Shown piece after piece: positions 22,166 through 62,315 of a DNA stretch of 64,000 nt (positions within the stretch are counted from its first letter, which is position 1; each line of letters starts with the position of its first letter). The stretch is taken from contig OZ241738.1 of NCBI GenBank assembly GCA_965200925.1, positions 332,052 to 396,051 on the forward strand. The letters are read 5' to 3'. Position numbers and translations under genes: made by a program. Source of the stretch: Alphaproteobacteria bacterium (GTDB lineage: Bacteria; Pseudomonadota; Alphaproteobacteria; UBA828). The notes beneath the pieces were generated by a model that saw only the letters and a list, made by a program, of their open reading frames with translations, was not told the origin of the DNA and ran no database searches.

Positions 22166-22196
22166 GCCCGAGTGGGAGGGAGGAGAGGAAGGCCCG

Positions 22197-28245: not shown

Positions 28246-28435
28246 TCAGAAAATGTGGCCCGCCTGGTGATCCATGTCAACACCTGTATCAACACGGTAA
28301 ATCGATATGGGACGCTCTACAGCGCAGGTGTGACGGGTTTGTATGCGGGAAAATACACTCAATACATTGATATTACGATATGTATGGCGCTTCCGGCGCA
28401 TCCGGTCGCAACACGGCGTAAATTAGCTGGCGAGA

Positions 28436-28480
28436 CTCATAACCTGAAGGTCGCAGGTTCGAATCCTGCCCCCGCAACCA
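28436..28480 (+). other. Partial tRNA, 3' 45 nt only (CAU anticodon loop through T-arm, acceptor and CCA), the probable att core of the integrative element
   Basis: The anticodon loop CTCATAA is followed by stem CCTGA, variable region AGGTC, T-arm GCAGG-TTCGAAT-CCTGC, acceptor CCCCGCA, discriminator A and CCA. Upstream there is no complementary acceptor 5' strand (TGCGGGG) and no anticodon-stem partner, so the gene is not intact. It lies 190 nt from the integrase start. Confidence 0.65.
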
Positions 28481-28483
28481 CTC

Positions 28484-35484: not shown

Positions 35485-38400
35485 CTACCACCTCAGCCGC
35501 AGGTCGATGCGGGCGCCGTGCTCGGGGGCGGCGGCGCCTTCCTTGCGTTCGGCTTCGAGACCGACGGCGAGGTCCGGCCCGAACGCGGAGCGCGTCCCGA
35601 GGCGCCAGCGCCGCGCCCCGCCCTCTTCGTAGCCGAACCCGACATGGGGCGTCATCACCCCGGCCCCGTTCCACACCCCGAACCCGTAGCCCAGCTCCGC
35701 CTCCAGGCGCGCCGTGTTGGCGTCGGTGGTGGCGTCACCCGACGAAACGCGGCCCGTCATCCCTTTGTCCCATAGCCGCGCGAGGCCGCTCTCCGATGCC
35801 CCCCAACGCGGCGACAGCGTGAACGACAGGCCCCGGCCGCCGGGACCGGGCGACAGCTGCGCCGACCCCGACGCGCCCCATTCCTCCACGTCGCCCTCAT
35901 GCGCCACCAGCGTCCGGCCCCGCGCCTCCACCGACAGGCCGCCCGACACCCATTCGAGACCGCCGCCCAGTTCCACGCCCGCGCCGGTCTCCCCGTCGCC
36001 GCCGTCCCAGCGCGCGCCCACCTCCAGCGACGGCGTGAACGCGCCCCCGCCCGCCAGCGCGTATGTCCGGCTTCCTTCCGCCGCGAGCCGCACGCGCCGC
36101 GTGTCCACGGACACCTTCTCGAGCGCCGATCCGTTGTCCTCCACCGAATAGCGCGTCGCCTCCCCCGATCCCTTCACCGCCAGCGCCAACCCGCCCACCG
36201 ACGCCACCGGAACCGAGCCGCCCACCGCGACGCCCACGAACGCACTGTCGCCCTTCTGGACCCCGAAACGCTCCCCGACCTCCTCGTCCGCGATCTCGAT
36301 CTCGCCCTCGCCGTAGCCCAGCGCGCCCCACAGGCGCGAGCCGTTCGAACCCGTCCACCCTGCATACGGATGCACCGCCGCAAGACGGCTCTCGTGAGCG
36401 CCCGTGACCGCTGCCACATCCCCGCTCCGGTCCGTGTAATCGATCTCGCTCTCGAACCACGACATCGCCAGACCGCCCCGGAGACCCTCTCCCAGCGGCG
36501 CATCAACGCCCACGTGCGCCGAGAACAGCTCGCCCGACCAGTCCAGAACATCCTTGTCCAGCGACAGCGAACGCCGGCTCCCGCCGCCCCACATCACCGC
36601 CGGGGAGCCGGAGCCGCCGCCGCCAACACCCGCGCCATCACCGGCCCCACCGCCGCTGCCGGCACCGGCGACGCCAATGCTACCGCCGCCCAGCGCCACC
36701 GCGAACGTCCGGCCCTCCAGAACCTTGCGCCACGACAGGCCTTCCCCATCCTGCGCGTCTTCCTGCGCCTTCAGCGCCGAAGCCAGCGTGTCCGCCGTCC
36801 CGCCGCCCGTACCCGAGGACTCCAGGCGACCCGTCACCGCCTCAACCACGCTCCCCCATTGCGCACGCGACAACTCCGGCAGGATCGACTCGTTGATCGC
36901 CTTCAGACGCTCCCGCGCCGCGCCCAGGTCCGACACCACCTCGATCTTGACGGTCGTCTGGCCCTCGTCGCCGTCGACGTCCCGCGCGATCCAGCTATAG
37001 TCCCTCGCCTTCATCGGCTCGGTCGGCGTACCCGACAGGGTGCCCGTGTTCGGGTCCACTACCAAGCCGGGCGGAGCGTCCGGCTCCAGGCGGTAGGTCA
37101 CCTCGACGTCTCCCTCCGCCCTCGGCAGCGTCTCCGACTGCGCCTCGTCCACCGTGAAGGTGTAGGTCTTCCGGGACGCGACGTCGAAGCTCGGCTTCGT
37201 GTCCACGTATCCCACCGCGAACGGCGAGAACGACCTCATGCCAGGCGCACAGACACGCATCCGATCTGCATCGAACGACGAATCCGCAACCTCCGCCCAA
37301 ACGTTGCCGTCATAGTGCAGCAGCAACCCCTCCCGACCGGCCGCCGCCTGCCGCAGGCCGTCGCTCACAGGCAAGCACACCTTCAGGCCCGACGACGGAA
37401 CCGTACCCGTCACGCTGATGTCCACCACCCGCCGCGCGGTCCCCAACGCCTCCGCCAAGCCGCCGAAGCCGTCGCCCGCCGCCTTCGCCAGCGTCGCCGC
37501 AGAGACCTCCGGCGAGAACGTCAGCGCCAGCGGCGGACCCGCTCCCACACCCGCCAGATCGACCTCGATCCCCGCCGGCACTCCGGACTCCACCGTCACC
37601 GTCACCCGGCGGCCCCCGATGTCGTAGGTCGTCCTTCCCGCCGCGCCATCCGTCACGATCCTGGTGTCGCCGGGATCGGAGACCGCCACGGCCAGCGTTC
37701 CCGTCACGCCGCCGTAAGCGCCGCCCGACGCCGCGTGCGTCAGGGACGCCACGTCGGCAAGGTCGTCGTCGTCCGGCTGCGCGGTCACCATCACCGTCTG
37801 CGCCGCGCTCCAGTCCGACGGGGTGAAGGTCAGGCGGAATGGAGAAACCGTCAGGTCGGCGTCGTCCGGCGAGATCGAGATCAAGACCGTCACGGTCCCG
37901 GCGGGCCTGCTGGTCAGCGCCGCCGTGTACGCCGCGGCCTCGCCCCCCACCGCCGCAACCACCGCCGCCGGATCAAGCACGAACCCCTTCGTGTCGTCGT
38001 CCTCGATGGTCAGTTCCGCGTCCGTCACCGCCATCGTCGTCGAGTCCGCCGTGGCGCGGGAGTTCGCCACCGTCGCCGAGACCGTCACCGTCTTGGCGTC
38101 CGCGTCGATGTAGTTGTTCTTCGCCGTGATCGTCACCACACCGGTGCTCTCGGTCGCGCTCGCCGCGATGGTCAGCATCTTGTCCATGCTCAGCGTGTAG
38201 TCGCCTTCCACCGCCGGGGACACCGGCGTCACCGTCACCGTCGTCGCCGCGGACGACGGATGCGACAGCGTCGCCGTCACCGTCGAGACGCCGCCGTTCT
38301 CCACCACCGACGACGGGTTCAGCGCCAGCGTCACCCCCGGCGGGCCGTCGTCGTCGGTCGTCGTCACGGACACGTCCTCCTCGACCGACGACGTGTCGTA

Positions 38401-41400
38401 GTCGGCATCCCCGCTCGACGGGTCGAGGCGCACCTGCCAGGTCACCGTCCCGTCGTCGATGCTGTCGTTCGCCCCGGTCACCGTCACCGTCTGCGCCGTG
38501 CTCCAGCTTGTCGTTGCGAACGTCAGCGACGGCGGCGATACCGTCCCCTCGCTCCCATCCCGGCTCGCCACCGACACCGTCACCGCCGCCGAAGGCTGCG
38601 TCCGCAGCGCCACCGTGAACGTCGATTGTCCGCCCGCCTCCGTCGCCTGGCCCGTGACCGCACTCACGTTCAGCCCGAACTCGTTGTCGCGGTTCCTCGC
38701 ATACACGGTGACCGCCGAGAGCGCGTCGTAGTTGGCGTCCGCCGTGTTCGTCTGGTCCACCGTCAGCGTGACCGTGTAGTCCCGGTTGCCGTCGGCGACG
38801 GAATCGTCCACCCCGGTCAGGGTCACCGTCTGCGCCGTGCTCCAGTCGCTCGCCGTGAAGGTCAGCGTCGACGGCCCCACCGTGCCCTCGCCGGTGTCCG
38901 AACTCACCACGCCGATCGCCACGTCCCCCGTCGGCTCCGTCGCCAGCTTCACCGTGAACGTGGCCGTCCCGGCCGATTCCGTCGTCTCCAGCCGCGAGCC
39001 GGTCGACGTCGCCGGAGACACCGCGATCCCCGCCGTATCGTCGTCGGTCAAGGTCAGCGAAACCCCGCCCCCGGACACCGTGCCCGCGCCGTGGCCGTTG
39101 GCCAGCACCGCCGTCACCGTCACCTGCCGGTCCGCCGCGTCCACGTCGTTGTCCACCGCCGTGAGCACCGCCCCGCCCGCACTCGACGTAGCCCCGGCCG
39201 CGATCGCGATCCGAGACGCCGACCCCGAACCCACCGTGAACGCCCCCGCCACCGCCTGCACCGTCACCGTCGTCGCCTGCGCCGAACGCCGGTTCAAGGT
39301 CGCCGTCACCGTCGTCATGCCGCCGTTCTCCGAGATCGACGAGGCCGACAGCGCCAGCGTCGCGTCCGGCGCCGCGTCGTCGTCGGTGATGGTCAGCGTC
39401 CGGGCGATCGGCTGCTGCACGCTCTGGTCGTTGACCGCCGTTCCCGAAACCGTCACCTGCTTGTTCGGCGCGTCCGTGTCGTTGTCCACCGCCGCCACCG
39501 TCACCGTGCCGCTGCTGGTCGTCGCCCCGGCCGCTATGGTCAGCGTGGCCGCGCTCGACAGCGTGTAGTCGCCCGCCGCCGCCCCGGTCGAGGCCACCGG
39601 CGCGACCGATACCGTGATCGTCGTCGCCGCGCTCGACGCCCGGTTCAGCGTCGCCGTCACCGACGCCGTGCTGCCCGTCCCGCTCTCGTCGATGGTCGAA
39701 GGCGTCAACGCCAGCGTCACCGTCGGCGGACCCTCGTCGTCGCGGATGGTCAGCGTCGCCGCCGCCGGCGCCGCCGCCCCGTTGCCGCCCGCCGCCGTCG
39801 CCGACACGCGCACCTCGATGTCCGGCTCGTCGGCGGCGTTGTCCTGCGCCGTCACCGTCACCGTGCCCGCGCTGACGGTGGCCCCGGCCGCGATGGTGAG
39901 CTTCGTCGTGCTCGACAGCGCGAAGTCCCCCGACACCGCGCCCGTCGACGCCACCGCGGCGGCCGACACGGTGAGCGTCACCGCCGCGCTCGACTTGCCC
40001 GAGAGCGTCGCCGTCACCGTCGAGACGCCGCCGTTCTCGCCGACGGTCGCCGGCGTGAGCACCAGCGCCAGCGTCGGCAAGGTATCGTCGTCCGTCAGCG
40101 TCAGCGTCACGTCCGGCGGCACCGCCACCCCGTTGCCCCCCGCCGCGGTTCCCGAGACCGTCACCGACTTGTTCGGCGAATCCACGTCGTTGCCGTTCGC
40201 CGTCACCGTCACCAGGCCCGCGCTCTCCGTCGACCCGGCCGCGATGGTCAGCGTCGTTGCGCCCGACAGGGTGAAGTCCGCGGCGACCGTCCCGGTCCCT
40301 GCGGCTGCGGCCACTGTCACCGTCACAGCAGCGCTCGATGGGCCGGAGAGCGTCGCCGTCACCGTGGAGATACCGTCCGTCTCCGCAATCGACGACGGCG
40401 TGAGCGCCAGCGAAACCGTCGGCAGCGTCTCATCGTCCGTCAGCGTCAGCGTCACGTTGGACGGATTGGCGACCCCGTTGCCGCCCGCCGCGGTTCCCGA
40501 AACCGTCACCGATTTGTTCGGCGAATCCACCGCGTTGCCGTTCGCCCTCACCGTCACTTCGCCCGCGCTCGTCGTCGCCCCCGCGGCGATGGTCAGAGTC
40601 TTCGCCGTGCTCAAGGTGAAGTCACCCGCGACCGCGCCGGCCCCCGCGGCCGCAGCCACCGTCACCGTCACCGCAGCGCTCGACTTGCCCGTAAGCGTCG
40701 CCGTAACCGTGGAGATGCCGCCCGTCTCCGTAATCGACGTGTCGGAGAGCGCCAGCGCCAGCGTCGGCAAGGCGTCGTCGTCCGTCAGCGTCAGCGTCAC
40801 GTTCGGCGGGTTCGAGACCCCGTTGCCGCCCGCCGCGGCGCCCGAAACCGTCACCGACTTGTTCGGAGAATCCATGTCGTTGCCGTTCGCCGTCACCGTC
40901 ACCAGCCCCCCGCTCGTCGTTGCCCCGGCCGCGATGGTCAGCGTCGTCGCGCTCGACAGGTCGAAGTCCGCCGCCACCGCCCCGGCCCCTACCGCCGCGG
41001 CCACCGTCACCGTCACCGCAGCGCTGGACTCGCCGGAGAGCGTCGCCGTCACCGTGGAGACCCCGCCCGTCTCCGAAATCGAAGTAGAAGAGAGCGCCAG
41101 CGCAACCGTCGGCAAGGCATCGTCGTCGGTGATCGTCAGGGTCACGTTCGACGGGTTCGCCACCCCGTTGCCGCCCGCCGTGGTTCCCGAGACCGTCACA
41201 GACTTGTTCGGAGAATCCACGTCGTTGCCGTTCGCCGTCACCGTCACCACGCCCGCGCTCGTCGTCGCCCCCGCCGCGAAGGTCAGCGTCGCCGCCGTGC
41301 TCAGGGTGAAGTCCGCCGCGACCGCCCCGGCCCCCGCAGCAGCAGCCACCGTCACCGTCACCGCTTCGCTCGACGCACCCGAAAGCGTCGCCGTCACCGT

Positions 41401-50400: not shown

Positions 50401-53400
50401 CGCAACCCCGCCCGTCTCCGTAATCGACGAATCGGAGAGCGCCAGCGCGACCGTCGGCAAGGCGTCGTCGTCCTCCAGCGTCAACGTCACGTTCGGCGGC
50501 GCCGCGACGCCGTTACCCCCCGCGACCGTACCCGAGACCGTCACCGACTTGTCCGGCGAATCCACCGAGTTGCCGTTCGCCGTCACCGTCACCAAGCCCG
50601 TGCTGGTGGTCGCGTTGGCCGCGATGGTCAGCGTCTTCGCCGTGCTCAAGGCGAAGTCCGCGCCGACCGCGCCGGTTCCGGCGGCCGCCGCCACCGTCAC
50701 CGTCACCGCAGCGCTCGACGGACCCGAAAGCGTCGCCGTCACCGTCGCAACCCCGCTCGTCTCCGAAATCGACGAATCGGAGAGCGCCAGCGCCACCGTC
50801 GGCAAGGCGTCGTCGTCGGCGATGGTCAGCGTCCGGGCGACCGGCTGCTGCACGCCCTGGTCGTTGACCGCCGTTCCCGAAACCGTCGCCTGCTTGTTCG
50901 GCGCGTCGGTGTCGTCGTCCACCGCCGCCACCGTCACCGTGCCGCTGCTGGTCGTCGCCCCGGCCGCGACGGTCAGCGTGGCCGCACTCGACAGGGTGAA
51001 GTCCGCCGCGACCGCGCCCGTCGACGCTACCGGCGCGACCGACACCGTGATCGTCGTCGCCGCACTCGACACCCGGTTCAGCGTCGCCGTCACCGCCGCC
51101 GTGCTCCCCGTCCCGCTCTCGTCGATGGTCGAAGGCGTCAACGCCAGCGTCACCGTCGGCGGACCCTCGTCGTCGCGGATGGTCAGCGTCACCGCCGACG
51201 GCGCCGCCGCCCCGTTGCCGCCCGCCGCCATCGCCGACACGCGCACCTCGATGTCCGGCTCGTCGGCGGCGTTGTCGTTCGCCGTCGCCGTCACCGTGCC
51301 CGTGCTGACGGTGGCCCCGGCCGCGATGGTCAGCTTCGTCGTGCTCGACAGGGCGAAGTCCGCCGCCACCGCGCCGGTCGACGCCACCGGAGCGGCCGAC
51401 ACGGTGAGCGTCACCGCCGCGCTCGACTTGCCCGAGAGCGTCGCCGTCACCGTGGAGACGCCGCCGTTCTCGCCGACGGTCGATGGCATGAGCACCAGCG
51501 CCACCGTCGGCAAGGTATCGTCGTCCGTCAGCGTCAGCGTCACGTCCGGCGGCACCGCCACCCCGTTGCCGCCCGCCGCGGTTCCCGAGACCGTCACCGA
51601 CTTGTTCGGCGAATCCACGTCGTTGCCGTTCGCCGTCACCGTCACCAGGCCCGCGCTCGTCGTCGATCCCGCCGCGATGGTCAGAGTCTTCGCCGTGCTC
51701 AAGGTGAAGTCCGCCGCGACCGCCCCGGCCCCCGCGGCCGCAGCCACCGTCACCGTGACCGCCTCGCTCGATTTGCCCGTAAGCGTCGCCGTCACCGTCG
51801 AAACTCCGCCCGTCTCCGAAATCGACGCGTCGGAGAGCACCAGCGCAGCCATCGGCAGCGTCTCGTCGTCGGTCAGCGTCAACGTCGCGCCGGTCACCGC
51901 CCCCGCCCCCTGGCCGTTGGCCAGCGCCGCTGTCACTGTCGCGCTGCGCCCCGCGCTCCCCTGGTGGATGCTATCGTCCACCGCCGTGATCAACACCGTG
52001 TCCGAGGCCGCCGTGGTTGACCCCGCCGCGATCGTGATCGTCGCGTCCGTTCCCACCGTGTAGGAACCCGAGACCCCCTGCACCGTCACCGTCGAAGGCT
52101 CGCTCGATGGGTGCGACAAGGTCGCCGTCACCGTCGAAACCCCGCCGTTCTCCGACACCGATGTCGGGTTCAGCGACAGCGTCACCCCCGGCGCCGCGTC
52201 GTCGTCCTCCAGCGTCAGCGTCACGTCCGGCGGGGCCGCGACCCCGTTGCCGCCCGCCGCGGTGCCCGAAATCGTCACCGACTTGTTCGGCGAATCCACC
52301 GCGTTGCCGTTCGCCCTCACCGTCACCAGGCCCGTGCTGGTGGTCGCGTTGGCCGCGAAGGTCAGCGTCGCCGCCGTGCTCAAGGTGAAGTCGCCCGAGA
52401 CCGCGCCGGCCCCCGCGGCCGCCGCCACCGCCACCGTCACCGCTTCGCTCGACGGGCCGGAGAGAGTCGCCGTCACCGTCGAGATGCCGCCCGTCTCCGA
52501 AATCGACGAGTCCGAAAGCATCAGCGCAACCGTCGGCAGCGTCTCGTCGTCTTCCAGCGTCAACGTCACGTTCGGCGGATTCGCGACGCCATTGCCGCCC
52601 GCCGCGGCGCCCGAGACCGTCACCGACTTGTTCGGAGAATCCACGTCGTTGCCGTTCGCCGTCACCGTCACCAAGCCCGCGCTCGTCGTCTCCCCGGCCG
52701 CGATAGTCAAAGTCTTCACGCTCGACAGGGTGAAGTCCGCCGCGACCGCCCCGGCCCCCGCAGCCGCAGCCACCGTCACCGTCACCGCTGCGCTCGACGC
52801 ACCCGACAGCCGCGCCGTCACCGTGGAGATGCCGCCCGTCTCCGAAATCGACGAGGCGGAGAGCGCCAGCGCAACCGTCGGCAGCGTCTCGTCGTCTTCC
52901 AGCGTCAACGTCACGTTCGGCGGATTCACGACGCCGTTGCCGCCCGCCGACGTCCCCGAGACCGTCACCGACTTGTTCGGCGAATCCACCGAGTTGCCGT
53001 TCGCCGTCACCGTCACCAAGCCCGCGCTCTCCGTCGAACCCGCCGCGATAGTCAAAGTCTTCACGCTCGACAGGGTGAAGTCCGCCGCGACCGCCCCGCT
53101 CCCGGCGGCCGCTCCCACCGTCACCGTGACCGCCGCGCTCGACTTGCCCGTAAGCGTCGCCGTCACCGTCGAAACCCCGCTCGTCTCCGATATCGACGAA
53201 TCGGAGAGCGCCAGCGCAACCGTCGGCAGCGTCTCGTCGTCGGTCAGCGTCAGCGTCCGGGCGATCGGCGGCTGCACGCCTTGGTCGTTGACCGCCGTTC
53301 CCGAAACCGTCACCTGCTTGTTCGGCGCGTCGGTGTCGTCGTCCACCGCCGCCACCGTCACCGTGCCGCTGCTGGTCGTCGCGCCCGCCGCGATGGTCAA

Positions 53401-56400
53401 CGTGTTCGCGCTCGACAGCGTGTAGTCGCCCGCCGCCGCCCCGGTCGAGGCCACCGGCGCGACCGACACCGTGATCGTCGTCGCCGCGCTCGACGCCCGG
53501 TTCAGCGTCGCCGTCACCGACGCCGTGCTGCCCGTCCCGCTCTCGTCGATGGTCGAAGGCGTCAACGCCAGGGTCACCGTCGGCGGGCCTTCGTCGTCGC
53601 GGATGGTCAGCGTCACGGCCGGCGGCGGCGCCGCCCCGTTGCCGCCCGCCGCCGTCGCCGACACGCGCACCTCGATGTCCGGCTCGTCGTCGGTGTTGTC
53701 GTTCGCCGTCACCGTCACCGCGCCCGCGCTGACGGTGGCCCCGGCCGCGATGGTGAGTGTCGTCGTGCTCGACAGTGCGAAGTCCCCCGCCACCGCGCCC
53801 GTCGACGCCACCGGGGCGGCCGACACCGTGAGCGTCACCGCCGCGCTCGACTTGCCCGAGAGCGTCGCCGTCACCGTCGAGACGCCGCCGTTCTCGCCGA
53901 CGGTCGCCGGCGTGAGCACCAGCGCCAGCGTCGGCAAGGCGTCGTCGTCCGTCAGCGTCAGCGTCGCGTTCGACGGATTCGAGACCCCGTTGCCGCCCGC
54001 CGCGGTTCCCGAGACCGTCACCGACTTGTTCGGCGAATCCACGTCGTTGCCGTTCGCCGTCACCGTCACCAAGCCCGCGCTCTCCGTCGATCCCGCCGCG
54101 ATGGTCAGGGTCGCCGCGCTCGACAGGGTGAAGTCCGCGGCGACCGCCCCGGCCCCCGCGGCCGCAGCCACCGTCACCGTGACCGCCTCGCTCGATTTGC
54201 CCGTAAGCGTCGCCGTCACCGTCGCAATCCCGCCCGTCTCCGTAATCGACGAATCGGAGAGCACCAGCGCAGCCGTCGGCAGCGTCTCGTCGTCCGTCAG
54301 CGTCAACGCCGCTCTCGCCGAAGGAGATATAAGGCTAAAGAGGTTGCCGCCCCCGAACGTCCAGGGCCACTTCCTCCTCCCCGGGTCCCTCGTTAGCCGG
54401 AAAGCATAACGCGCGCCCACCATCACCCGACGGTTGCCGCTGTGGACGTCGTTGTCCACCGCGGCGACGGTCACCGCGCCGGCGCTCACGGTATCCCCCG
54501 CCGCGATGGTCAGGGTGTTGGCCGCGCTCCGGCTGTAGTCGCCCGAATGGGAAGCCAACACCCTGATGGTCGTCGGCACGCTCGACGGGTGCGAGAGCGC
54601 CGCGGTCACCGTCGCCGTGCTGCCCGCGCCGCTTTCGTCGATGGTCGAGGGCGAAAGCGTCAGCTCCACCGTCGGCAAGGCGTCGTCGTCCTCCAGAATC
54701 AGCACCATGAGCCGCGGGTCCGCGACTCCGTTGCCCCCTGCCGCCGCGCCGCGGACCACTATCCGCTTGTGCGACGAATCGACGTCGTTGCCGTTCGCCG
54801 TCACCGTCACTTCGCCAGCGCTCGTCGTCGCCCCGGCCGCTATGGTCAGCGTCGTCCCCGTGCTCAAGGTGAAGTCGCCCGACACCGCCCAGGAGCTGCC
54901 GGCCGTCACCGTCACCGTCACCGTCACCGCAGCGCTCGACTTGCCCGAAAGCGTCGCCGTCACCGTCGCAATCCCGCCGGTCTCCGAAATCGACGAATCG
55001 GAGAGCGCCAGCGTCGCCGTCGGCAGGGCCTCGTCGTCGGCCAAGGTCAAGGTCGCGTTCGCCGGGTCCGCGACCCCGTTGCCGCCCGCCGCCGCGCCGG
55101 AGACCGTCACCCGCTTGTCCGGCGCGTCCACGTCGTTGTCGCTGGCCGTGATCGTCACCGTCCCGGTGCTCGTCGTGGCGTTCGCCGCGATGGTCAGCGT
55201 CGTGCCCCCGCTCAGGCCGAAGTCGCCTGCCACCGCGCCCGACGCCGCCACCGCCGCCGCCGCGACCGTGACCGTCACCGCCTCGCTCGACGGGCCGCCC
55301 AGCGCCGCGCTCACCGTCGCCACCCCGCCGTTCTCGGCGATCGACGACGACGACAGCACCAGCGAGACCGTGGGCGGGCCGTCGTCGTCGCGCAGCGTCA
55401 GGGTCGCGTCCGGCGGGTCCGCCGCCCCGAGCGTGCCCGACGCCGAACCCTTCACCGTCACCTGCTTGTCCGGCGAATCCATGTTGTTCGGTTCCGCGGT
55501 CACCGTCACCAGGCCCGCACTCGTCGTCTGCCCGGCAGCGACGGTCAGCGTGTTCGCCGTGCTCAGGGTGAAATCGCCGTCCACCGCGCCCGTGGACGCC
55601 GTCGCCGACACCGCGATCGTCACCGCCCCCGCCGAGGGGTGGCTCAGGGTCGCGGTCACCGTCGCCACGCCGCCCGACTCCGAGATCGACGCCGGGGCAA
55701 GGGCGAGCGCCGAACTCGGCCGCGAGTCCTCGTCCGCGATGGTCAGGGTCAGGTCCACCGGCGCCGCCACCAGCCCGTAACCGCCGTCCACCGCCCCGCT
55801 CACCGTCACAAACTTGCCCGACGAGTCGATGGCGTCGTCCGTCGCGGTGATCGTCACCGTGCCCGCGCTCGCCGCCTGCCCGGCAGCGATGGTCAGCGTC
55901 CGCGCCGCGCTCAGGGCGAAGCCGCCGTCGGCGGCCAGCGCCGCGTAGGTCAAGGCCGCCGACACCGTCACCGTGATCGCCTCGCCGGAGGGAGGGCCGC
56001 TCAGGCGCGCCGTCACCGTCGTCGCGTTGCCCGCCCCGCTCTCCCGGATCGTGTACGGGTACGCTATGTACGGGTCCGACAGCATCAGCACCAGGGTCGG
56101 CGTCGAGTCGTCGTCGGTGATCGTCCCCACCCCGGTCGCCGCGCTCCCGAGCACCGCCCCGGAGGGGTTGGAGAGGGCGATGCGGACCGTCTCGTCGGGC
56201 TCGTCCAGGCTGTCGACGGTCACCGTCACCTCGACGGTCTTGCTGGTCTCGGTAGCGGAGAAGGTCAGCGTGCCCCCGGAGAACGCCGTGTAGTCGGCGC
56301 CGGAGGCCGCCGTGCCCGGGTCCGCGGCCGCCGCCCAGTCCACCGTCACCTGCCGGCCCGGCGCCCGGTTCAGGGCCACCACGAAGGGCAGCTTCGGCAC

Positions 56401-56550
56401 CTCCGTCTGGCCCGGCCCCCCTTCCGCCACGCTCGGCGAGGAGATGGAGAAGACGATGTCGCCGTCGGTCGCCGCCAGCGCGTGGTGCGCCGACGCCGCA
56501 GCGAACGCCGCCAGTACCGCCGCCAGAGAAATCCGCGCGACCGTCTTCAT
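35485..56550 (-). CDS. Giant Calx-beta-repeat type Va autotransporter adhesin (~7,021 aa), copy B, complete
   Basis: The open frame runs 35485..56598. The start was chosen at the ATG at 56550, where the signal peptide MKTVARISLAAVLAAFAAASAHHALA-ATDGD begins. Residues 45-150 form a canonical Calx-beta domain (DYTAFSGGTLTF...ETSKTVEVTVTVDSLDEPDETVRIALSNPSGAVLG). About 50 more repeats carrying DDD motifs follow. The C-terminal ~300 aa has a beta-barrel pattern and ends RIDLRLRW. Confidence 0.85.
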   Translation of the reverse strand: MKTVARISLAAVLAAFAAASAHHALAATDGDIVFSISSPSVAEGGPGQTEVPKLPFVVALNRAPGRQVTVDWAAAADPGTAASGADYTAFSGGTLTFSATETSKTVEVTVTVDSLDEPDETVRIALSNPSGAVLGSAATGVGTITDDDSTPTLVLMLSDPYIAYPYTIRESGAGNATTVTARLSGPPSGEAITVTVSAALTYAALAADGGFALSAARTLTIAAGQAASAGTVTITATDDAIDSSGKFVTVSGAVDGGYGLVAAPVDLTLTIADEDSRPSSALALAPASISESGGVATVTATLSHPSAGAVTIAVSATASTGAVDGDFTLSTANTLTVAAGQTTSAGLVTVTAEPNNMDSPDKQVTVKGSASGTLGAADPPDATLTLRDDDGPPTVSLVLSSSSIAENGGVATVSAALGGPSSEAVTVTVAAAAVAASGAVAGDFGLSGGTTLTIAANATTSTGTVTITASDNDVDAPDKRVTVSGAAAGGNGVADPANATLTLADDEALPTATLALSDSSISETGGIATVTATLSGKSSAAVTVTVTVTAGSSWAVSGDFTLSTGTTLTIAAGATTSAGEVTVTANGNDVDSSHKRIVVRGAAAGGNGVADPRLMVLILEDDDALPTVELTLSPSTIDESGAGSTATVTAALSHPSSVPTTIRVLASHSGDYSRSAANTLTIAAGDTVSAGAVTVAAVDNDVHSGNRRVMVGARYAFRLTRDPGRRKWPWTFGGGNLFSLISPSARAALTLTDDETLPTAALVLSDSSITETGGIATVTATLTGKSSEAVTVTVAAAAGAGAVAADFTLSSAATLTIAAGSTESAGLVTVTANGNDVDSPNKSVTVSGTAAGGNGVSNPSNATLTLTDDDALPTLALVLTPATVGENGGVSTVTATLSGKSSAAVTLTVSAAPVASTGAVAGDFALSSTTTLTIAAGATVSAGAVTVTANDNTDDEPDIEVRVSATAAGGNGAAPPPAVTLTIRDDEGPPTVTLALTPSTIDESGTGSTASVTATLNRASSAATTITVSVAPVASTGAAAGDYTLSSANTLTIAAGATTSSGTVTVAAVDDDTDAPNKQVTVSGTAVNDQGVQPPIARTLTLTDDETLPTVALALSDSSISETSGVSTVTATLTGKSSAAVTVTVGAAAGSGAVAADFTLSSVKTLTIAAGSTESAGLVTVTANGNSVDSPNKSVTVSGTSAGGNGVVNPPNVTLTLEDDETLPTVALALSASSISETGGISTVTARLSGASSAAVTVTVAAAAGAGAVAADFTLSSVKTLTIAAGETTSAGLVTVTANGNDVDSPNKSVTVSGAAAGGNGVANPPNVTLTLEDDETLPTVALMLSDSSISETGGISTVTATLSGPSSEAVTVAVAAAAGAGAVSGDFTLSTAATLTFAANATTSTGLVTVRANGNAVDSPNKSVTISGTAAGGNGVAAPPDVTLTLEDDDAAPGVTLSLNPTSVSENGGVSTVTATLSHPSSEPSTVTVQGVSGSYTVGTDATITIAAGSTTAASDTVLITAVDDSIHQGSAGRSATVTAALANGQGAGAVTGATLTLTDDETLPMAALVLSDASISETGGVSTVTATLTGKSSEAVTVTVAAAAGAGAVAADFTLSTAKTLTIAAGSTTSAGLVTVTANGNDVDSPNKSVTVSGTAAGGNGVAVPPDVTLTLTDDDTLPTVALVLMPSTVGENGGVSTVTATLSGKSSAAVTLTVSAAPVASTGAVAADFALSSTTKLTIAAGATVSTGTVTATANDNAADEPDIEVRVSAMAAGGNGAAAPSAVTLTIRDDEGPPTVTLALTPSTIDESGTGSTAAVTATLNRVSSAATTITVSVAPVASTGAVAADFTLSSAATLTVAAGATTSSGTVTVAAVDDDTDAPNKQATVSGTAVNDQGVQQPVARTLTIADDDALPTVALALSDSSISETSGVATVTATLSGPSSAAVTVTVAAAAGTGAVGADFALSTAKTLTIAANATTSTGLVTVTANGNSVDSPDKSVTVSGTVAGGNGVAAPPNVTLTLEDDDALPTVALALSDSSITETGGVATVTATLSGPSSAAVTVTVAAAAGTDAVAADFTLSSVKTLTIAAGETTSAGLVTVTANGNAVDSPNKSVTVSGTSAGGNGVVNPPNVTLTLEDDETLPTVALALSDSSITETGGVSTVTATLTGPSSAAVTVMVGAAAGTGAVAADFALSTGTTLTIAAGSTTSAGLVTVTANGNDVDSPNKSVTVSGAAAGGNGVAAPPNVTLTLTDDDALPTVALALSDSSIAETSGVATVTATLSGPSSAAVTVTVGAAAGSGAVSGDFTLSTATTLTIAAGSTTSAGLVTVTASGNTVDSPNKSVTVSGTAAGGNGVTAPPNVTLTLEDDDVLPTVALALSDTSISETGGISTVTATLSGPSSAAVTVTVAAAAGTGAVAADFTLSSAKTLTIAASATTSTGLVTVTANGNDVDSPNKSVTVSGAAAGGNSVAAPPDVTLTLEDDDALPTVALALSDPSISETGGVSTVTATLTGKSSEAVTITVGAAAGSGAVGADFALSTAKTLTIAAGETTSAGLVTVTANGNTVDSPNKSVTVSGTAVGGNGVAAPPNVTLTLTDDDALPTVALALSASSISETGGVSTVTATLSGASSEAVTVTVGAAAGSGAVGADFALSTAKTLTIAAGETTSAGLVTVTANGNTVDSPNKSVTVSGTAVGGNGVAAPPNVTLTLTDDDALPTVALALSASSISETGGVSTVTATLSGASSEAVTVTVGAAAGSGAVGADFALSTAKTLTIAAGETTSAGLVTVTANGNTVDSPNKSVTVSGTAVGGNGVAAPPNVTLTLTDDDALPTVALALSASSISETGGVSTVTATLSGASSEAVTVTVGAAAGSGAVGADFALSTAKTLTIAAGETTSAGLVTVTANGNTVDSPNKSVTVSGAAVGGNGVANPPNVTLTLEDDETLPTVALALSASSISETSGVATVTATLTGASSAAVTVTVAAAAGTGAVSGDFTLSTATTLTIAAGSTESAGLVTVTANGNTVDSPNKSVTVTGTAAGGNGVATPPNVTLTLEDDETLPTVALALSASSISETSGVATVTATLSGASSAAVTVTVGAAAGTGAVAADFDLSSATTLTISAGATTSAGLVTVTANGNAMDSPNKSVTVSGAAAGGNGVATPPNVTLTLEDDDALPTVALVLTPPTVGENGGISTVTATLTGPSSEAVTVTVAAAAGSGAVAADFDLSAAKTLTIAANATTSTGLVTVRANGNAVDSPDKSVTVSGTAAGGNGVAAPPDVTLTLEDDDALPTVALALSDSSITETGGVATVTATITGKSSEAVTVTVGAAAGTGAVAADFALSSAKTLTIAAGSTTSAGLVTVRANGNAVDSPDKSVTVSGTAAGGNGVANPSNVTLTLTDDETLPTVALALSSTSISETGGVATVTATLTGKSSAAVTVTVGAAAGTGAVAADFTLSSAKTLTIAAGSTTSAGLVTVRANGNDVDSPNKSVTVSGTAAGGNGVANPSNVTLTLTDDETLPTVALVLSSTSISETGGVSTVTATLTGKSSAAVTVTVGAAAGTGAVAADFTLSSAKTLTIAAGSTTSAGLVTVRANGNAVDSPDKSVTVSGTAAGGNGVANPSNVTLTLTDDETLPTVALALSSTSISETGGVATVTATLTGKSSAAVTVTVGAAAGTGAVAADFTLSSAKTLTIAANATISTGLVTVRANGNAVDSPDKSVTVSGTAAGGNGVANPSNVTLTLTDDETLPTVALALSSTSISETGGVATVTATLTGKSSAAVTVTVGAAAGTGAVAADFTLSSAKTLTIAANATTSAGLVTVRANGNAVDSPNKSVTVSGTAAGGNGVANPSNVTLTLTDDETLPTVALVLVPATVGENGGVSTVTATLSGKSSAAVTLTVSAAPVASTGAVAGDFALSSATKLTIAAGATVSTGTVTVTAQDNTADEPDVEVRVSATAAGGNGVTAPADATLTVRDDEGPPTVTLALTPSTIDESGTGSTAAVTATLNRVSSAATTVTVSVAPVASTGAAAGDYTLSSAATLTIAAGATTSSGTVTVAAVDNDTDAPNRQATVSGTAVNDQGVQQPIARTLTIADDDALPTVALALSDSSISETGGISTVTATLTGKSSEAVTVTVGAAVGTGAVAADFTLSSATTLTIAAGSTTSAGTVTVTANGNTVDSPDKSVTVSGTAAGGNGVVNPPNVTLTLEDDETLPMVALALSSTSISETGGVSTVMATLSGPSSEAVTVTVGAAAGTGAVAADFTLSTATTLTFAAGSTTSAGLVTVTANGNAVDSPDKSVTVSGTAAGGNGVANPPNVTLTLEDDETLPTVALALSDSSVSETGGVSTVTATLSGKSSAAVTVTVAAAAGTGAVLGDFTQTGTTLTIAAGSTTSAGLVTVTANGNAVDSPDKSVTVSGAAVGGNGVTAPPNVTLTLEDDDALPTVALALSDSSITETGGISTVTATLSGPSSAAVTVTVAAAAGTGAVAGDFTQSGTTLTIAAGATTSAGEVTVTANGNAVDSPNKSVTVSGTAAGGNGVANPPNVMLTLTDDDALPTVALALTPSSITETNGVATVTARLSGASSAAVTVTVAAAAGAGAVSGDFTLSTAATLTIAAGDTESAGLVTVTANDNDVDSPNKPVTVSGTVAGGNGVANPPNATLTLADDDALPTLALVLTPATVGENGGVSTVTATLSGKSSAAVTLTVSAAPVASTGAVAGDFALSSTTKLTIAAGATVSTGTVTVTANDNAADEPDIEVRVSATAAGGNGAAAPLAATLTIRDDEGPPTVTLVLTPATIDESGTGSTAAVTATLNRASSAATTITVSVAPVASTGAAAGDYTLSSANTLTIAAGATTSSGTVTVAAVDDDTDAPNKQATVSGTAINDQGVQQPIARTLTLTDDETLPTAALALSASSISETGGISTVTATLSGPSSAAVTLTVAAAAGTGAVVDDFTLSTATTLTIAAGATTSTGVVTVTANGNAVDSPNKPVTVSGTAAGGNNVANPSNVTLTITDDDALPTVALALSSTSITETGGIATVTATLSGASSEAVTVTVAAAAGAGAVAADFTLSTAATLTFAAGATTSAGVVTVTANGNDVDSPNKSVTVSGTTAGGNGVANPSNVTLTITDDDALPTVALALSSTSISETGGVSTVTATLSGESSAAVTVTVAAAVGAGAVAADFDLSSATTLTIAAGATTSGGLVTVTANGNDMDSPNKSVTVSGAAAGGNGVSNPPNVTLTLTDDDALPTLALALSDTSITETGGISTVTATLTGKSSAAVTVTVAAAAGAGAVAGDFTLSTAKTLTIAAGATTSAGEVTVRANGNAVDSPNKSVTVSGTAAGGNGVANPSNVTLTLTDDETLPTVSLALTPSSIAETDGISTVTATLSGPSSAAVTVTVAAAAGTGTVAADFTLSGATTLTIAAGSTESAGLVTVTANGNDVDSPNKSVTVSGTAAGGNGVAVPPDVTLTLTDDDTLPTLALVLTPATVGENGGVSTVTATLSGKSSAAVTLTVSAAAVASTGAVSGDFALSSTTKLTIAAGATVSAGTVTVTAQDNAADEPDIEVRVSATAAGGNGAAAPAAATLTIRDDEGPPTVTLALTPSTIDESGTGSTASVTATLNRASSAATTITVSVAPVASTGAAAGDYTLSSAATLTIAAGATTSSGTVTVAAVDNDTDAPNKQVTVSGTAVNDQSVQQPIARTLTITDDDAAPDATLALSASSISENGGMTTVTATLNRRSAQATTVTVQAVAGAFTVGSGSASRIAIAAGATSSAGGAVLTAVDNDVDAADRQVTVTAVLANGHGAGTVSGGGVSLTLTDDDTAGIAVSPATSTGSRLETTESAGTATFTVKLATEPTGDVAIGVVSSDTGEGTVGPSTLTFTASDWSTAQTVTLTGVDDSVADGNRDYTVTLTVDQTNTADANYDALSAVTVYARNRDNEFGLNVSAVTGQATEAGGQSTFTVALRTQPSAAVTVSVASRDGSEGTVSPPSLTFATTSWSTAQTVTVTGANDSIDDGTVTWQVRLDPSSGDADYDTSSVEEDVSVTTTDDDGPPGVTLALNPSSVVENGGVSTVTATLSHPSSAATTVTVTPVSPAVEGDYTLSMDKMLTIAASATESTGVVTITAKNNYIDADAKTVTVSATVANSRATADSTTMAVTDAELTIEDDDTKGFVLDPAAVVAAVGGEAAAYTAALTSRPAGTVTVLISISPDDADLTVSPFRLTFTPSDWSAAQTVMVTAQPDDDDLADVASLTHAASGGAYGGVTGTLAVAVSDPGDTRIVTDGAAGRTTYDIGGRRVTVTVESGVPAGIEVDLAGVGAGPPLALTFSPEVSAATLAKAAGDGFGGLAEALGTARRVVDISVTGTVPSSGLKVCLPVSDGLRQAAAGREGLLLHYDGNVWAEVADSSFDADRMRVCAPGMRSFSPFAVGYVDTKPSFDVASRKTYTFTVDEAQSETLPRAEGDVEVTYRLEPDAPPGLVVDPNTGTLSGTPTEPMKARDYSWIARDVDGDEGQTTVKIEVVSDLGAARERLKAINESILPELSRAQWGSVVEAVTGRLESSGTGGGTADTLASALKAQEDAQDGEGLSWRKVLEGRTFAVALGGGSIGVAGAGSGGGAGDGAGVGGGGSGSPAVMWGGGSRRSLSLDKDVLDWSGELFSAHVGVDAPLGEGLRGGLAMSWFESEIDYTDRSGDVAAVTGAHESRLAAVHPYAGWTGSNGSRLWGALGYGEGEIEIADEEVGERFGVQKGDSAFVGVAVGGSVPVASVGGLALAVKGSGEATRYSVEDNGSALEKVSVDTRRVRLAAEGSRTYALAGGGAFTPSLEVGARWDGGDGETGAGVELGGGLEWVSGGLSVEARGRTLVAHEGDVEEWGASGSAQLSPGPGGRGLSFTLSPRWGASESGLARLWDKGMTGRVSSGDATTDANTARLEAELGYGFGVWNGAGVMTPHVGFGYEEGGARRWRLGTRSAFGPDLAVGLEAERKEGAAAPEHGARIDLRLRW
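38850..56400 (-). repeat. Tandem Calx-beta-like coding repeat array (115-120-aa units) within adhesin copy B
   Basis: The protein shows about 50 units of TLTLxDDDxLPTVAL...VTVSGxAAGGNGV. The plus-strand artefact ORFs at 45597, 45942 and 46287 repeat at exactly 345 nt. Units at 47.9-48.9 kb are near-perfect 360-nt copies. Confidence 0.8.
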
Positions 56551-56640
56551 CGCACCGCCGATACCGCCCGACCGCACCCCCAAATCCATCGATGGCAACC
56601 GCCGACAGGGTTTTCAGTGGCCGGTGATCGGTGCTGGCAA

Positions 56641-61748: not shown

Positions 61749-62315
61749 TCAGTTACCTGCCGCTTTCAGCACCCGGGCCTGAGCCTTGCGGGCTTGCTGC
61801 ACCATGCTGTCCACCTCCGCGTCGCGTCCTTCGCCGATCATTTCATCGCGTTTCAGCGTGGCGAGGAAGTAAGCGTGGAGAAAGGTCCGCTCAATCAAGG
61901 ATGTGAGGCCGGTGGGCATCGTGGGAGCCTGGGCTCCGGATTCGCTCCCGAAGGTCGCGGGCATTCGGTCGCGGATCAATTCGGCAGCACCGGTCCGGTC
62001 GTCGGAACGGCCGTGAATCGGCTTTCCGGTGTGCCCATCGGGCACGACAGCGGAGATGAAGTCGCGGATTTCGGAGACCTCCTGCTCGCGTCCGGACAAG
62101 ATCAGGTCGCGCGCGAGGACCTGCGCGGCGAACAGCGAGGCCCTTGCGACCTGGATCTCTGCCTCGGTGCGAGGCCATTCCCGTCGGTCGAGGGCCTCCA
62201 TGGCGAGCTCGACGACGAGCCGGTTCGCCGAAACGTCCCGCTCCTTTGCTGCGTTTTCGATGCGGTTCCATTGCCCGGGCGTGACCCGGATGTTCTTTTG
62301 CAGCGTCCGTGCCAT
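61749..62315 (-). CDS. Ribbon-helix-helix domain protein, copy B
   Basis: Homologous to 16855..17421 (MARTLQKNIRVTPGQWNRIENAAKERDVSANRLVVELAMEAL). Confidence 0.45.
   Translation of the reverse strand: MARTLQKNIRVTPGQWNRIENAAKERDVSANRLVVELAMEALDRREWPRTEAEIQVARASLFAAQVLARDLILSGREQEVSEIRDFISAVVPDGHTGKPIHGRSDDRTGAAELIRDRMPATFGSESGAQAPTMPTGLTSLIERTFLHAYFLATLKRDEMIGEGRDAEVDSMVQQARKAQARVLKAAGN

Follow-up and report, generated by a model that had tools for sequence, protein, structure and literature searches.

A 21-kb gene probably encoding a type Va-like autotransporter adhesin with about 50 Calx-beta repeats, located in likely tandem integrative elements

The window analysed here (64,000 nt of contig OZ241738.1, assembly GCA_965200925.1, Alphaproteobacteria bacterium) carries a giant gene whose product is probably a fibrillar adhesin secreted as a type Va-like (classical-orientation) autotransporter, and the gene lies in what are likely tandem integrative elements. 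The evidence was drawn from the reading frame and its repeat array, the duplicated neighbourhood, the C-terminal barrel and the relatives of that barrel.

The giant gene and its Calx-beta array

An open reading frame on the minus strand (35485..56598, 7,037 codons) was uninterrupted from a TTG at 56598. The start codon is likely the ATG at 56550, giving a protein of 7,021 aa, and the original prediction of a 21-kb gene coding for about 7,000 aa was borne out with coordinates that match this start. The strand, which is minus, had not been given in it. The gene was considered to be coding because its GC3 was 0.91 (GC1/GC2 0.61/0.62), domain hits were obtained and a second intact paralogue exists. 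The N-terminus read MKTVARISLAAVLAAFAAASAHHALA, followed by A, in which a basic n-region, a hydrophobic core and an A-L-A cleavage motif could be recognized by eye, in line with the single Sec signal peptide that had been proposed. The composition was strongly acidic (631 D+E vs 223 K+R), only two Cys were present among the 7,021 aa (aa 6392 and 6434, both in one membrane-proximal domain), and the C-terminus was ...IDLRLRW. The parts of the gene were as follows:

35485..56550, minus: giant adhesin gene, copy b, 7,021 aa from the ATG at 56550 (domain hits and GC3)
56473..56550, minus: Sec-type signal peptide, aa 1-26, MKTVARISLAAVLAAFAAASAHHALA (read from the sequence)
39037..56460, minus: 50 contiguous Calx-beta repeats, aa 31-5838 (own-repeat HMM, Pfam, AF2/Foldseek)
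36928..39036, minus: membrane-proximal non-array region, aa 5839-6541 (HMM, Pfam, AF2, Foldseek, profile match)
37993-38346, minus: Calx-beta unit 51 (own-repeat HMM)
36937-37179, minus: He_PIG / SraP-like cadherin-like module (profile match to SraP 4m03, E 2.7e-13)
36601..36927, minus: linker, aa 6542-6650 (AF2: 36-residue alpha-helix, shorter helices, Gly-rich disordered stretch)
35851..36600, minus: autotransporter-type beta-barrel, aa 6651-6900 (PF03797, Foldseek, 12 confident strands)
35488..35850, minus: family-specific C-terminal tail, aa 6901-7021 (low-confidence model, kept across relatives)

When the protein was searched with an HMM of its own repeats, 50 contiguous units were delimited, together with a 51st (aa 6069-6186) and three beta-sandwich units that matched weakly. 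The repeat units were 112-119 aa long (typically ~115 aa), except for one of 132 aa, and all 51 ended in DD[D/E], which agrees with the DDD motifs noted earlier. About 50 near-identical modules had been predicted; the count stood, but near-identity did not, since the median pairwise amino acid identity was 70% (range 41-100%) and values of 95-100% were confined to some neighbouring repeats. A compensated frameshift in repeat 6 was considered and rejected, as the odd insert was present in both paralogues and no other frame restored the repeat.

The Calx-beta assignment was upheld by profile search and by structure prediction. For PF03160 (Calx-beta), with its gathering cut-off of 27 bits, the score was 79.7 bits over the N-terminal 1,017 aa and 37.4 bits over a segment of five repeats, while PF20579 (Pfam LapA) gave 74.4 and 61.2 bits on the repeats. 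The AlphaFold (AF2) model of two repeats had a pLDDT of 93.8, and its top Foldseek matches were the tandem Calx-beta structures of NCX1/CALX CBD12 (E 1e-8 to 5e-5). Pfam and AlphaFold/Foldseek were thus concordant, and on this sequence and model evidence the repeats are Calx-beta domains. Residues E16, D51, N80, D83, D113 and D114 were invariant or nearly so, and the acidic Ca-site motifs were present in 48-51 of the 51 units; given these kept Ca2+-site residues, the repeats are predicted to bind Ca2+.

Duplicated module and mobile-element context

The giant gene belongs to a module, composed of an RHH gene, a conventional autotransporter of 1,590 aa (AT2) and the giant gene itself, which was present twice in the window. 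Region 8256-17964 was 95.7% identical to 53116-62859, and 1-8064 was 90% identical to 45905-53968. The original prediction did not mention this duplication. The genes of the two modules and of the adjoining backbone were:

3..11660, minus: giant adhesin gene, copy a, first 3,886 aa (3' part past the left window edge)
11751..16520, minus: AT2a, 1,589 aa, 98% identical to AT2b
16855..17481, minus: Y-a, paralogue of Y-b (sequence comparison)
56551..56640, minus: intergenic gap between AT2b and the giant gene, 90 nt (coordinates)
56641..61413, minus: AT2b, conventional autotransporter, 1,590 aa, with its own signal peptide MNTRARIGALLFGLAFLLGAAEAQA (PF03797, TIGR01414)
61749..62375, minus: Y-b, 208-aa ORF with RHH/MobC-like N-terminus (mobile-backbone homology ends within it)
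17335..28480, minus: integrative-element backbone, 11.1 kb, 97-99% identical to an unrelated metagenome contig (L001)
18027-18950: YAcAr/SLOG, backbone gene
22197-22664: SSB, backbone gene
26989-28245: tyrosine integrase (PF13356 66.8 bits, PF00589 45.1 bits)
28424..28480, plus: 3' 57 nt of tRNA-fMet(CAT), candidate att site (ends exactly where the L001 homology ends)

AT2b is classed, by its scores of 78.6 bits for PF03797 and 101.3 bits for TIGR01414, as a bona fide autotransporter, co-oriented with the giant gene and upstream of it, and the AT2 start MNTRARIG was kept in both copies. A second large, co-oriented autotransporter at a distance of 90 bp had been predicted, and the gap was found to be exactly 90 nt. 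Promoter and terminator scans of this gap and of the sequence after the giant stop codon gave nothing above chance.

Each copy of the module adjoins an 11-kb integrative backbone, and the integrase and the tRNA-fMet 3' fragment, which we take to be from the initiator tRNA by visual comparison with the known consensus, lie between the copies. Further backbone genes were recognized from the annotation of L001, namely a PIN/Phd pair, an HTH protein, a 2OG oxygenase and a Toprim protein. A second backbone copy begins at 62229 and leaves the window at its right edge. No complete tRNA or other RNA gene was found in the window by ARAGORN and Rfam. The window contained only one copy of the 57-nt fragment. 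Relaxase and T4SS transfer genes were likewise not found in the window, only a MobC/RHH-like ORF, SSB, Toprim and YAcAr. Look-ups with YAcAr-b, Y-b and AT2b yielded no sequence that prolongs the locus, and the one with the integrase yielded the unrelated metagenome contig alone. The most likely arrangement is that of two related integrative elements in tandem, in which each module copy is fused to an integrase-bearing backbone at a tRNA-fMet att site. The adhesin genes had been regarded as cargo of an integrase/att-bounded element; one integrase and one tRNA-fMet fragment support this, but the second boundary and transfer genes are not in the window, and carriage of the adhesin genes by a mobile element is no more than plausible.

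A competing possibility, to which we give appreciable though lesser weight, is that the adhesin genes are ordinary chromosomal genes beside a self-contained 11-kb element, and that the second copy goes back either to a segmental duplication, which would have included the element and its neighbours, or to two strains having been misassembled into one sequence. The homology to L001 is indeed limited to 28480-17335 and stops within the Y gene, L001 carries neither AT2 nor the giant gene, no AT2 relatives were found near the other 80 related loci, and neither a relaxase/T4SS nor more than a single tRNA fragment was seen in the window. However, the breakpoint at 17335 shows no att-like repeat or tRNA and falls inside an ORF, which suggests replacement of cargo and not the end of an element. 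Furthermore, backbone and adhesin genes are joined twice in the same order at 90-97% identity, not 100%, an island of decayed defence, TA and integrase-fragment genes follows directly 3' of giant copy b, and a tyrosine integrase was located within 10 kb in ~9 of the 80 related loci. The tandem-element arrangement is preferred.

The C-terminal barrel and its relatives

Between the array and the barrel, a ~1,000-aa non-repetitive stalk had been predicted. A non-array region of ~700 aa followed by the linker was indeed present, but it was built of Ig/cadherin-like modules, holding two cadherin/Ig-like modules, an Ig-like module and a domain with two Cys. In the AF2 model of the C-terminal part, a helix of 36 residues (H452-487) was followed by low pLDDT at 491-558, and ~70 mostly disordered, Gly-rich residues separate this helix from barrel strand 1.

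The predicted C-terminal beta-barrel ending in W was supported, at a marginal Pfam score. PF03797 matched the last 399 aa at 26.9 bits, just above the cut-off of 26 (second score 24.5 bits; HMM positions 8-211), and in relatives the match was clear, being found in 12 of 19 members with a best E of 1.2e-16 and always over HMM positions 1-~210. The barrel strands were modelled at pLDDT 73-95, and Foldseek aligned the modelled barrel to BrkA, EspP, Hbp and NalP with TM 0.57-0.68. TIGR01414 and NCBIfam gave no match on the C-terminus of the giant protein, a profile of 19 family barrels matched no solved autotransporter among PDB sequences, and hhalign of the family barrel profile against the AT2 barrel returned an insignificant 27-column match only. 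Pfam and AlphaFold/Foldseek nevertheless agree in assigning the barrel to the autotransporter-type (type Va) 12-strand domain, of which it would be a divergent member.

The 12 modelled strands are followed by the tail, which consists of six amphipathic strand segments modelled at pLDDT 31-68 and ends in ...LRLRW; the barrel may therefore not be of the canonical 12-strand type. The membrane domain is ~370 aa long, compared with 255 positions in the Pfam model and ~100 aa above canonical barrel domains, and the 121-aa tail alone had no match in a Pfam search. It is conceivable, but in our judgement unlikely, that the protein has an enlarged barrel of 16-18 strands and represents a separate type V-like secretion or anchoring subclass, perhaps adapted to Ig-like passengers. 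In favour of such a barrel, PF03797 spans just the first ~210 of the ~370 aa, both here and in five distant relatives, DSSP assigned 18 strand segments in the C-terminal model, and the family-wide amphipathic alternation of the last six segments, where the terminal aromatic is located, is as strong as that of strands 1-12. The tail is also kept in the best 150 representatives listed and in 80 genome loci. On the other hand, the model fits 12-strand autotransporters (TM 0.57-0.68) and fits the 18-strand OccK porins poorly (TM ~0.18), and the confidence of the tail is low. Coevolution was analysed in an alignment of 274 barrel sequences (Neff 160) by mean-field DCA. Neighbouring strands had a mean pairing score of ~0.67 vs 0.36 for non-neighbours, and the scores of successive strands stayed above background through the tail, which favours the larger barrel; neither S1-S12 nor S1-S18 closure gave a signal in this alignment, so that closure does not decide either way. 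The divergent 12-strand domain is retained as the preferred reading.

At E<=1e-3 the barrel family contained 7,061 representative clusters, and at the stricter E<=1e-30 it still contained 2,197. Within it the barrel was always at the extreme C-terminus, nearly all relatives ended in W or F, and protein lengths reached 7,796 aa, so the earlier statement that the protein is far larger than typical type Va autotransporters holds for the studied examples, but within its own family it is not exceptional. Several relatives in genomes were ORFs of at least 4,500 aa carrying 18-31 Calx-beta-type repeats. The giant gene is, judging from these sequences, not unique but one variant within a large barrel family. 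Exact-sequence look-ups of the giant protein and of AT2 gave no match in a protein collection whose listed entries did not exceed ~1,600 aa, so that a length cap may account for this. The hosts were Alpha- and Gammaproteobacteria, Nitrospirales, Binatia, Thermodesulfobacteriota and Acidobacteriota; where the record of a relative had an informative name, this pointed mostly to sponge-associated bacteria of several phyla, and several records bore sponge-specific Candidatus names.

It has been reported that Calx-beta domains are enriched in sponge symbionts (PMC9531527, PMC11706023), and that sponge aggregation factors contain 2-15 Calx-beta domains and require Ca2+ for adhesiveness (PMC5400394). 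Literature combining Calx-beta, autotransporter and sponge was not found in our searches, nor was a description of a Calx-beta autotransporter-like adhesin architecture. Three papers mentioned Calx-beta together with autotransporter, and the two of them that were listed dealt with other subjects. Since the informatively named relatives are linked to sponges, and since sponge cells are glued by Ca2+-dependent, Calx-beta-rich aggregation factors, a function of the giant adhesin in binding to the host matrix or in host mimicry appears most likely.

Proposed secretion route and comparison with known systems

In the proposed mechanism, the precursor would cross the inner membrane via Sec and be held unfolded in the periplasm, for which the presence of only two Cys in 7,021 aa would be suitable. 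The barrel would be inserted by BAM, and the passenger would be exported C-terminus first, toward the N-terminus. Outside the cell, each Calx-beta domain would fold and bind Ca2+, which is plentiful in seawater; folding would act as a ratchet and stiffen the chain into a rod with a length of the order of 0.2 micrometre, as estimated from typical Ig-like domain lengths. The acidic, Ca2+-loaded rod may then mediate adhesion to the host matrix or to other cells. Some points speak against parts of this scheme. The periplasm in seawater is not Ca2+-poor, which is awkward for an unfolded 6,600-aa passenger of Ca2+-binding domains; and the marginal PF03797 score, together with a helix that is set apart from strand 1, unlike the canonical pore helix, argues against a canonical type Va protein.

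A more far-reaching and rather improbable extension would be that the barrel family, with its kept six-strand tail, is an undescribed type V branch that has an enlarged or two-part barrel for long Ig/Calx-beta arrays and was spread horizontally, partly by integrative elements, across unrelated phyla of sponge-associated bacteria. The Ca2+-loaded rods would then mimic or dock onto the Calx-beta aggregation factor of the host, and the bacteria would be taken as 'self' matrix.

It is very unlikely that the 21-kb ORF results from faulty assembly or from the decay of a former gene, with an array mis-collapsed or mis-expanded and a frame that is open fortuitously. Repeat arrays are prone to assembly error, stop-poor GC-rich repeats produced antisense ORFs of up to 3,760 aa here, and dN/dS between the giant paralogues was fairly high (0.68 for the N-terminus). 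However, both paralogues were intact (for copy a, the part inside the window), which, together with the dN/dS of 0.68 and that of 0.31 for AT2, was taken as evidence of selection. The two paralogues, assembled independently, agree in frame and largely in the order of their repeats over 3,886 aa and differ by whole-repeat indels. Domain matches extend all along the protein, which begins with a proper signal peptide and finishes with a C-terminal barrel that is likewise proper, and relatives of 3,000-7,800 aa occur in many assemblies.

Secretion by a type I system as a LapA/MpIBP-type RTX adhesin, with an incidental resemblance to a barrel, was rejected as scarcely credible: Pfam LapA (PF20579; 61-74 bits) gives the repeats a better score than Calx-beta does, and the size and architecture resemble those of giant T1SS adhesins, but RTX nonapeptide (GGxGxDxUx) motifs numbered zero, the protein starts with a Sec signal peptide, its C-terminus is a membrane barrel with W as the last residue, and the window genes include no ABC/MFP/TolC or LapG/LapD. 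The inverse autotransporter (type Ve) was also rejected, as the barrel is C-terminal and the N-terminus consists of signal peptide and Calx-beta repeats.

In the models of classical autotransporter secretion, the passengers considered are beta-helical, measure one to a few thousand residues and are exported by the drive of their own folding. A Sec-dependent, C-terminally anchored passenger of ~6,600 aa with ~54 beta-sandwich domains would be a test of these models, and it raises the questions of what prevents the chain from folding while it is in a Ca2+-replete periplasm and what role extra barrel strands play. The reported enrichment of Calx-beta domains in sponge symbionts would also gain a concrete protein architecture, a route of surface display and a route of spread, and the testable hypothesis arises that symbiont adhesins are linked to the Ca2+-dependent, Calx-beta-based sponge aggregation factor.

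Among known systems, the type Va autotransporters (BrkA, EspP, Hbp, NalP, EstA) share the Sec signal peptide, the passenger, the C-terminal barrel and the terminal aromatic, with PF03797 homology over ~10 strands and, for the first four, the fold similarity given above. Studied type Va autotransporters are several-fold smaller than 7,021 aa. The giant passenger differs from theirs in being composed of beta-sandwich domains and not of a beta-helix with an autochaperone, the membrane domain is longer by ~100 aa with a kept 120-aa tail, and a disordered, Gly-rich stretch lies between the helix and strand 1. In type Ve proteins (intimin, invasin, YeeJ), a 12-strand-type barrel likewise displays tandem Ig-like domains that fold sequentially outside the cell, but the barrel of the giant protein is C-terminal and of the PF03797 family, so that the topology is reversed, and its domains are Calx-beta, not BIg, and roughly ten times more numerous.

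The T1SS RTX adhesins (LapA of Pseudomonas fluorescens, MpIBP, SiiE) resemble the giant protein in their very long stalk of ~100-aa Ig-like repeats, in the PF20579 match of its repeats and in the expected Ca2+-dependent rigidity; for LapA, a Calx-beta domain has been described in addition to 37 repeats of ~100 aa (PMC7616799). The giant protein, in contrast, has a Sec signal peptide and a barrel in place of RTX repeats and T1SS genes, and would be anchored at its C-terminus and not via an N-terminal retention module. The sponge aggregation factors (MAFp4, AqAFs) are also extracellular with multiple Calx-beta domains, and would share the ecological setting if the host inference is right, but they are encoded by eukaryotic intron-containing genes and contain Wreath/VWA/VWD domains; they are likened here by description, and mimicry or binding is a hypothesis. 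Finally, the repeats are only 13-17% identical to CBD1-CBD2 of NCX1/CALX and occur in an extracellular, bacterial context, but these domains were the best structural matches of the repeat model, and their Ca2+-site acidic residues (E near strand A, D[F/Y], the [D/N]xxD loop and the terminal DDx) are kept in the giant protein.

Reading frame and Calx-beta repeat array of the giant gene

The G+C content of the window is about 71%, and the giant adhesin gene, copy b (giant-b), is one open frame on the minus strand from a TTG at 56598 to the stop at 35485. Read from the ATG at 56550, the start already chosen in the original prediction ahead of the signal peptide, it gives a product of 7,021 aa whose N-terminus, MKTVARISLAAVLAAFAAASAHHALA followed by ATDG, is a textbook Sec signal peptide. 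The G+C of the three codon positions was 0.61/0.62/0.91. The protein is strongly acidic (D+E 631 vs K+R 223) and has two cysteines in all. On the plus strand, antisense to the array, run ORFs as long as 3,760 aa (35899-47181 and others), with a GC3 near 0.9. They have third codon positions in common with the real gene and were rejected as genes: stop-poor, GC-rich repeats leave such broken antisense frames as artefacts, which could mislead gene callers.

A search of the protein with an HMM of its own units found 50 contiguous repeats at aa 31-5838 and a 51st at aa 6069-6186, as well as three weak beta-sandwich units (aa 5840-5949, 5959-6068 and 6187-6292). The units are 112-119 aa long and all 51 end in DD[D/E]. 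The count of about 50 modules was borne out, as was their Calx-beta type by Pfam, but the description of the repeats as near-identical was not: pairwise amino acid identity ranges from 41 to 100% with a median of 70%, and neighbours of 95-100% identity occur as runs in mid-array. By Pfam the repeats belong to both Calx-beta (PF03160, 79.7 bits for the N-terminal 1,017 aa and 37.4 bits for a five-repeat piece) and LapA (PF20579, 74.4 and 61.2 bits for the same pieces). A two-repeat AlphaFold model, made with an alignment of 45 overlapping repeat pairs, reached pLDDT 93.8, and its top PDB matches by Foldseek were the CBD12 structures of NCX1 and CALX, which are tandem Calx-beta domains, in line with the predicted repeat type. 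Invariant or near-invariant columns include E16, D51, N80, D83, D113 and D114, which we take to correspond to Ca2+-site positions of CBD1. In repeat 6 (about 54286-54396, minus strand; aa ~719-755), the usual strand-G region is replaced by a basic, aromatic insert of 37 aa, ARYAFRLTRDPGRRKWPWTFGGGNLFSLISPS. A frameshift origin was rejected, because the insert is common to both copies of the gene and no other frame restores the repeat.

Membrane-proximal region and C-terminal barrel

The array is followed by cadherin/Ig-like modules, a small domain with a conserved Cys pair, and a He_PIG module (26.1 bits), the family profile of which matched SraP in its cadherin-like module (4m03, E 2.7e-13). 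The last 931 aa were modelled with 38 homologues in the alignment (mean pLDDT 77). In this model a 36-residue helix and a disordered Gly-rich stretch lead to 12 confident beta-strands (model residues 561-809, pLDDT 73-95), after which come six low-confidence strand segments (residues 811-931, pLDDT 31-68). In the last 399 aa the autotransporter beta-domain PF03797 scored 26.9 bits, barely above the cut-off of 26; among 19 diverse relatives 12 matched it (best E 1.2e-16), every time over HMM positions 1 to about 210 of 255. The barrel model superposed on BrkA, EspP, Hbp and NalP with target-normalised TM scores of 0.57-0.68, and on the full-length EstA chain, by its beta-domain, with 0.29; superposition on the 18-strand OccK porins was poor (about 0.18). 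From the PF03797 matches across the family and the model superpositions, we accept the barrel as a predicted homologue of type Va barrels with a similar fold. Together with the terminal ...LRLRW, this agrees with the C-terminal barrel ending in W that had been proposed.

The membrane domain measures about 370 aa, of which the final ~120 (the tail; 35488-35850, minus strand; aa 6901-7021) had no Pfam match. The tail, which bears the ...LRLRW terminus, was kept in every relative examined. Its six segments are amphipathic beta-strand segments placed after the 12-strand autotransporter-like barrel, and their alternation is as strong family-wide as that of the first 12 strands. A low-powered coevolution analysis supported successive-strand pairing through the tail but showed no sign of the barrel closing at 12 or at 18 strands. 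Going by the model, the barrel may have 12 or up to 18 strands.

Duplicated module and integrative context

The co-oriented second large autotransporter placed 90 bp away was recovered as a conventional autotransporter (AT2b) 90 nt upstream of giant-b on the same strand. This gap shows no conspicuous terminator or promoter, so co-transcription of the two genes is possible, judging from sequence. Absent from the original prediction was the finding that the whole module (Y gene, autotransporter of 1,590 aa and giant gene) occurs twice in the window, in the same orientation.

Features of the duplicated module, in addition to giant-b
61749-62375, minus: Y-b, paralogue of Y-a
56641-61413, minus: AT2b, 1,590 aa, own signal peptide, PF03797 78.6 bits, TIGR01414 101 bits
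16855-17481, minus: Y-a, paralogue of Y-b
11751-16520, minus: AT2a, protein 98% identical to AT2b
3-11660, minus: giant-a, first 3,886 aa, cut at the left window edge

DNA identity is 95.7% between 8256-17964 and 53116-62859, and 90% between 1-8064 and 45905-53968. The frame and broad repeat order are kept between giant-a and giant-b, which differ by whole-repeat indels (about three extra units in giant-b) and elsewhere by 0-24% per unit; AT2 shows a dN/dS of 0.31 between the copies, the giant N-terminus one of 0.68. Taken together, this speaks against the gene being a pseudogene or the assembly having collapsed, and shows that the array is evolving quickly.

Between the module copies there are a YAcAr/SLOG gene, an SSB gene and a tyrosine integrase (26989-28245, minus strand). 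Adjoining the integrase, a 57-nt stretch (28424-28480, plus strand) was identified by eye as the 3' end of an initiator tRNA-Met gene; this fragment is likely an att site, and neither a further copy nor a complete tRNA was found in the 64-kb window. Over 11.1 kb, between 28480 and 17335, the sequence is matched at 97-99% identity by a section of an unrelated metagenome contig of 160 kb (L001, ENA ERZ25070167), where the flanks differ on both sides. At one end this homology stops precisely at the tRNA fragment, and at the other it breaks off within the Y ORF. The Y ORFs (208 aa) have a ribbon-helix-helix/MobC-like N-terminus with a weak NikA-like Pfam match, no relaxase follows them, and the breakpoint between backbone and adhesin cargo lies near their codon 50-60. 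A second backbone copy starts at 62229 and continues past the window edge. In L001 (1-9600), the integrase/SSB/Toprim/YAcAr backbone adjoins a type III Cmr CRISPR effector module, HsdR (type I restriction) and an AAA ATPase. These different neighbours imply that the defence or surface cargo gathered by the site or element differs between hosts. Directly 3' of giant-b (28481-35484) there is a decayed defence/toxin-antitoxin island with a G+C of 60-64%.

Features of the island 3' of giant-b
35178-35465: AbiEii fragment
34251-35048: AbiEi
33618-34255: split AbiEii
31199-31786 and 32749-33339, plus: two integrase C-terminal fragments
31908-32487: RelB/ParE pair
30677-31741: MmeI TRD/C fragment
29625-30710: AAA_21 ATPase
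28978-29847: DUF3226/OLD-TOPRIM partner of the AAA_21 ATPase

Carriage on a mobile element, as originally claimed, was thus upheld as far as an integrase, a tRNA fragment and a backbone beside the adhesin module are concerned; the status of the adhesins as cargo is plausible, not shown. The simplest reading is that two related integrative elements stand in tandem at tRNA-fMet, with the adhesin pair as the variable cargo of each, and it is only plausible because the far ends and any transfer genes lie beyond the window. A small element inserted beside chromosomal adhesin genes, followed by segmental duplication, has a lesser though appreciable chance of being the true history.

Relatives, proposed function and comparison with known systems

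A word-indexed protein search with the last 931 aa of giant-b gave 348 relatives, many of them annotated Calx-beta, LapA, He_PIG or PF03797, and no listed protein exceeded about 1,600 aa. When the last 381 aa were searched exhaustively with HMMER, 7,061, 5,685 and 2,197 representative clusters matched at E<=1e-3, 1e-10 and 1e-30, respectively. Of the 150 best matches listed, virtually all lie at the extreme C-terminus of their protein, and these proteins are from about 400 to 7,796 aa long; giant-b is therefore large without being unique. A collection with one genome per species had 380 stretches that encode relatives. The best 80 were nearly all from uncultured MAGs and covered Alpha- and Gammaproteobacteria, Nitrospirales, Binatia, Thermodesulfobacteriota and Acidobacteriota. 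In eight relatives the ORF is 4,200 aa or longer and still open where the 10-kb flank ends, and up to 31 giant-b-type units occur per relative, in different classes and phyla. Passengers vary across the 80 loci: some carry 18-31 giant-b-type Calx-beta units, and the own-repeat HMM found none in other relatives of 2,000-3,700 aa. A tyrosine integrase lies within 10 kb in about nine of these loci, and no AT2 relative was found near any of the 80. The giant-b barrel is 73% identical to that of a gammaproteobacterial MAG vs 58% to that of an alphaproteobacterial MAG, and this departure from taxonomy suggests horizontal spread of the family. Some of the best 80 relatives bear sponge-specific names (Poriferihabitaceae, Porisulfidus, Spongiihabitans), and notes on sponge genomes and metagenomes report taxa of these types; we infer a sponge host for the window organism.

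Starting from the demonstrated domain composition, fold and family membership, the precursor would be exported via Sec, the barrel inserted with the help of BAM, and the unfolded passenger threaded C-to-N, each domain folding outside the cell, assisted by Ca2+, as a ratchet. The result would be an acidic rod, stiff and, as estimated from typical domain lengths, about 0.2 micrometre long, that could mediate adhesion. Calx-beta domains are reported to be enriched in sponge symbionts (PMC9531527, PMC11706023), and the aggregation factors of sponges are proteins with multiple Calx-beta domains that depend on Ca2+ (PMC5400394). By this analogy, binding or mimicry of host matrix is the leading candidate function, put forward tentatively. 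Confirmation of an enlarged barrel or of host mimicry would add to the interest of the system.

A literature search found no published description of Calx-beta autotransporters, so that giant-b is in a large family for which no description was found. Two known designs were rejected: a T1SS RTX adhesin, as RTX repeats are missing and a signal peptide is present, and an inverse autotransporter, as the barrel is C-terminal. Giant-b has a stalk like that of LapA/MpIBP, and it displays tandem Ig-like domains as intimin/invasin do. Its topology is that of a classical autotransporter, and its barrel, though it bears a non-canonical extension, agrees with type Va barrels in sequence and fold.
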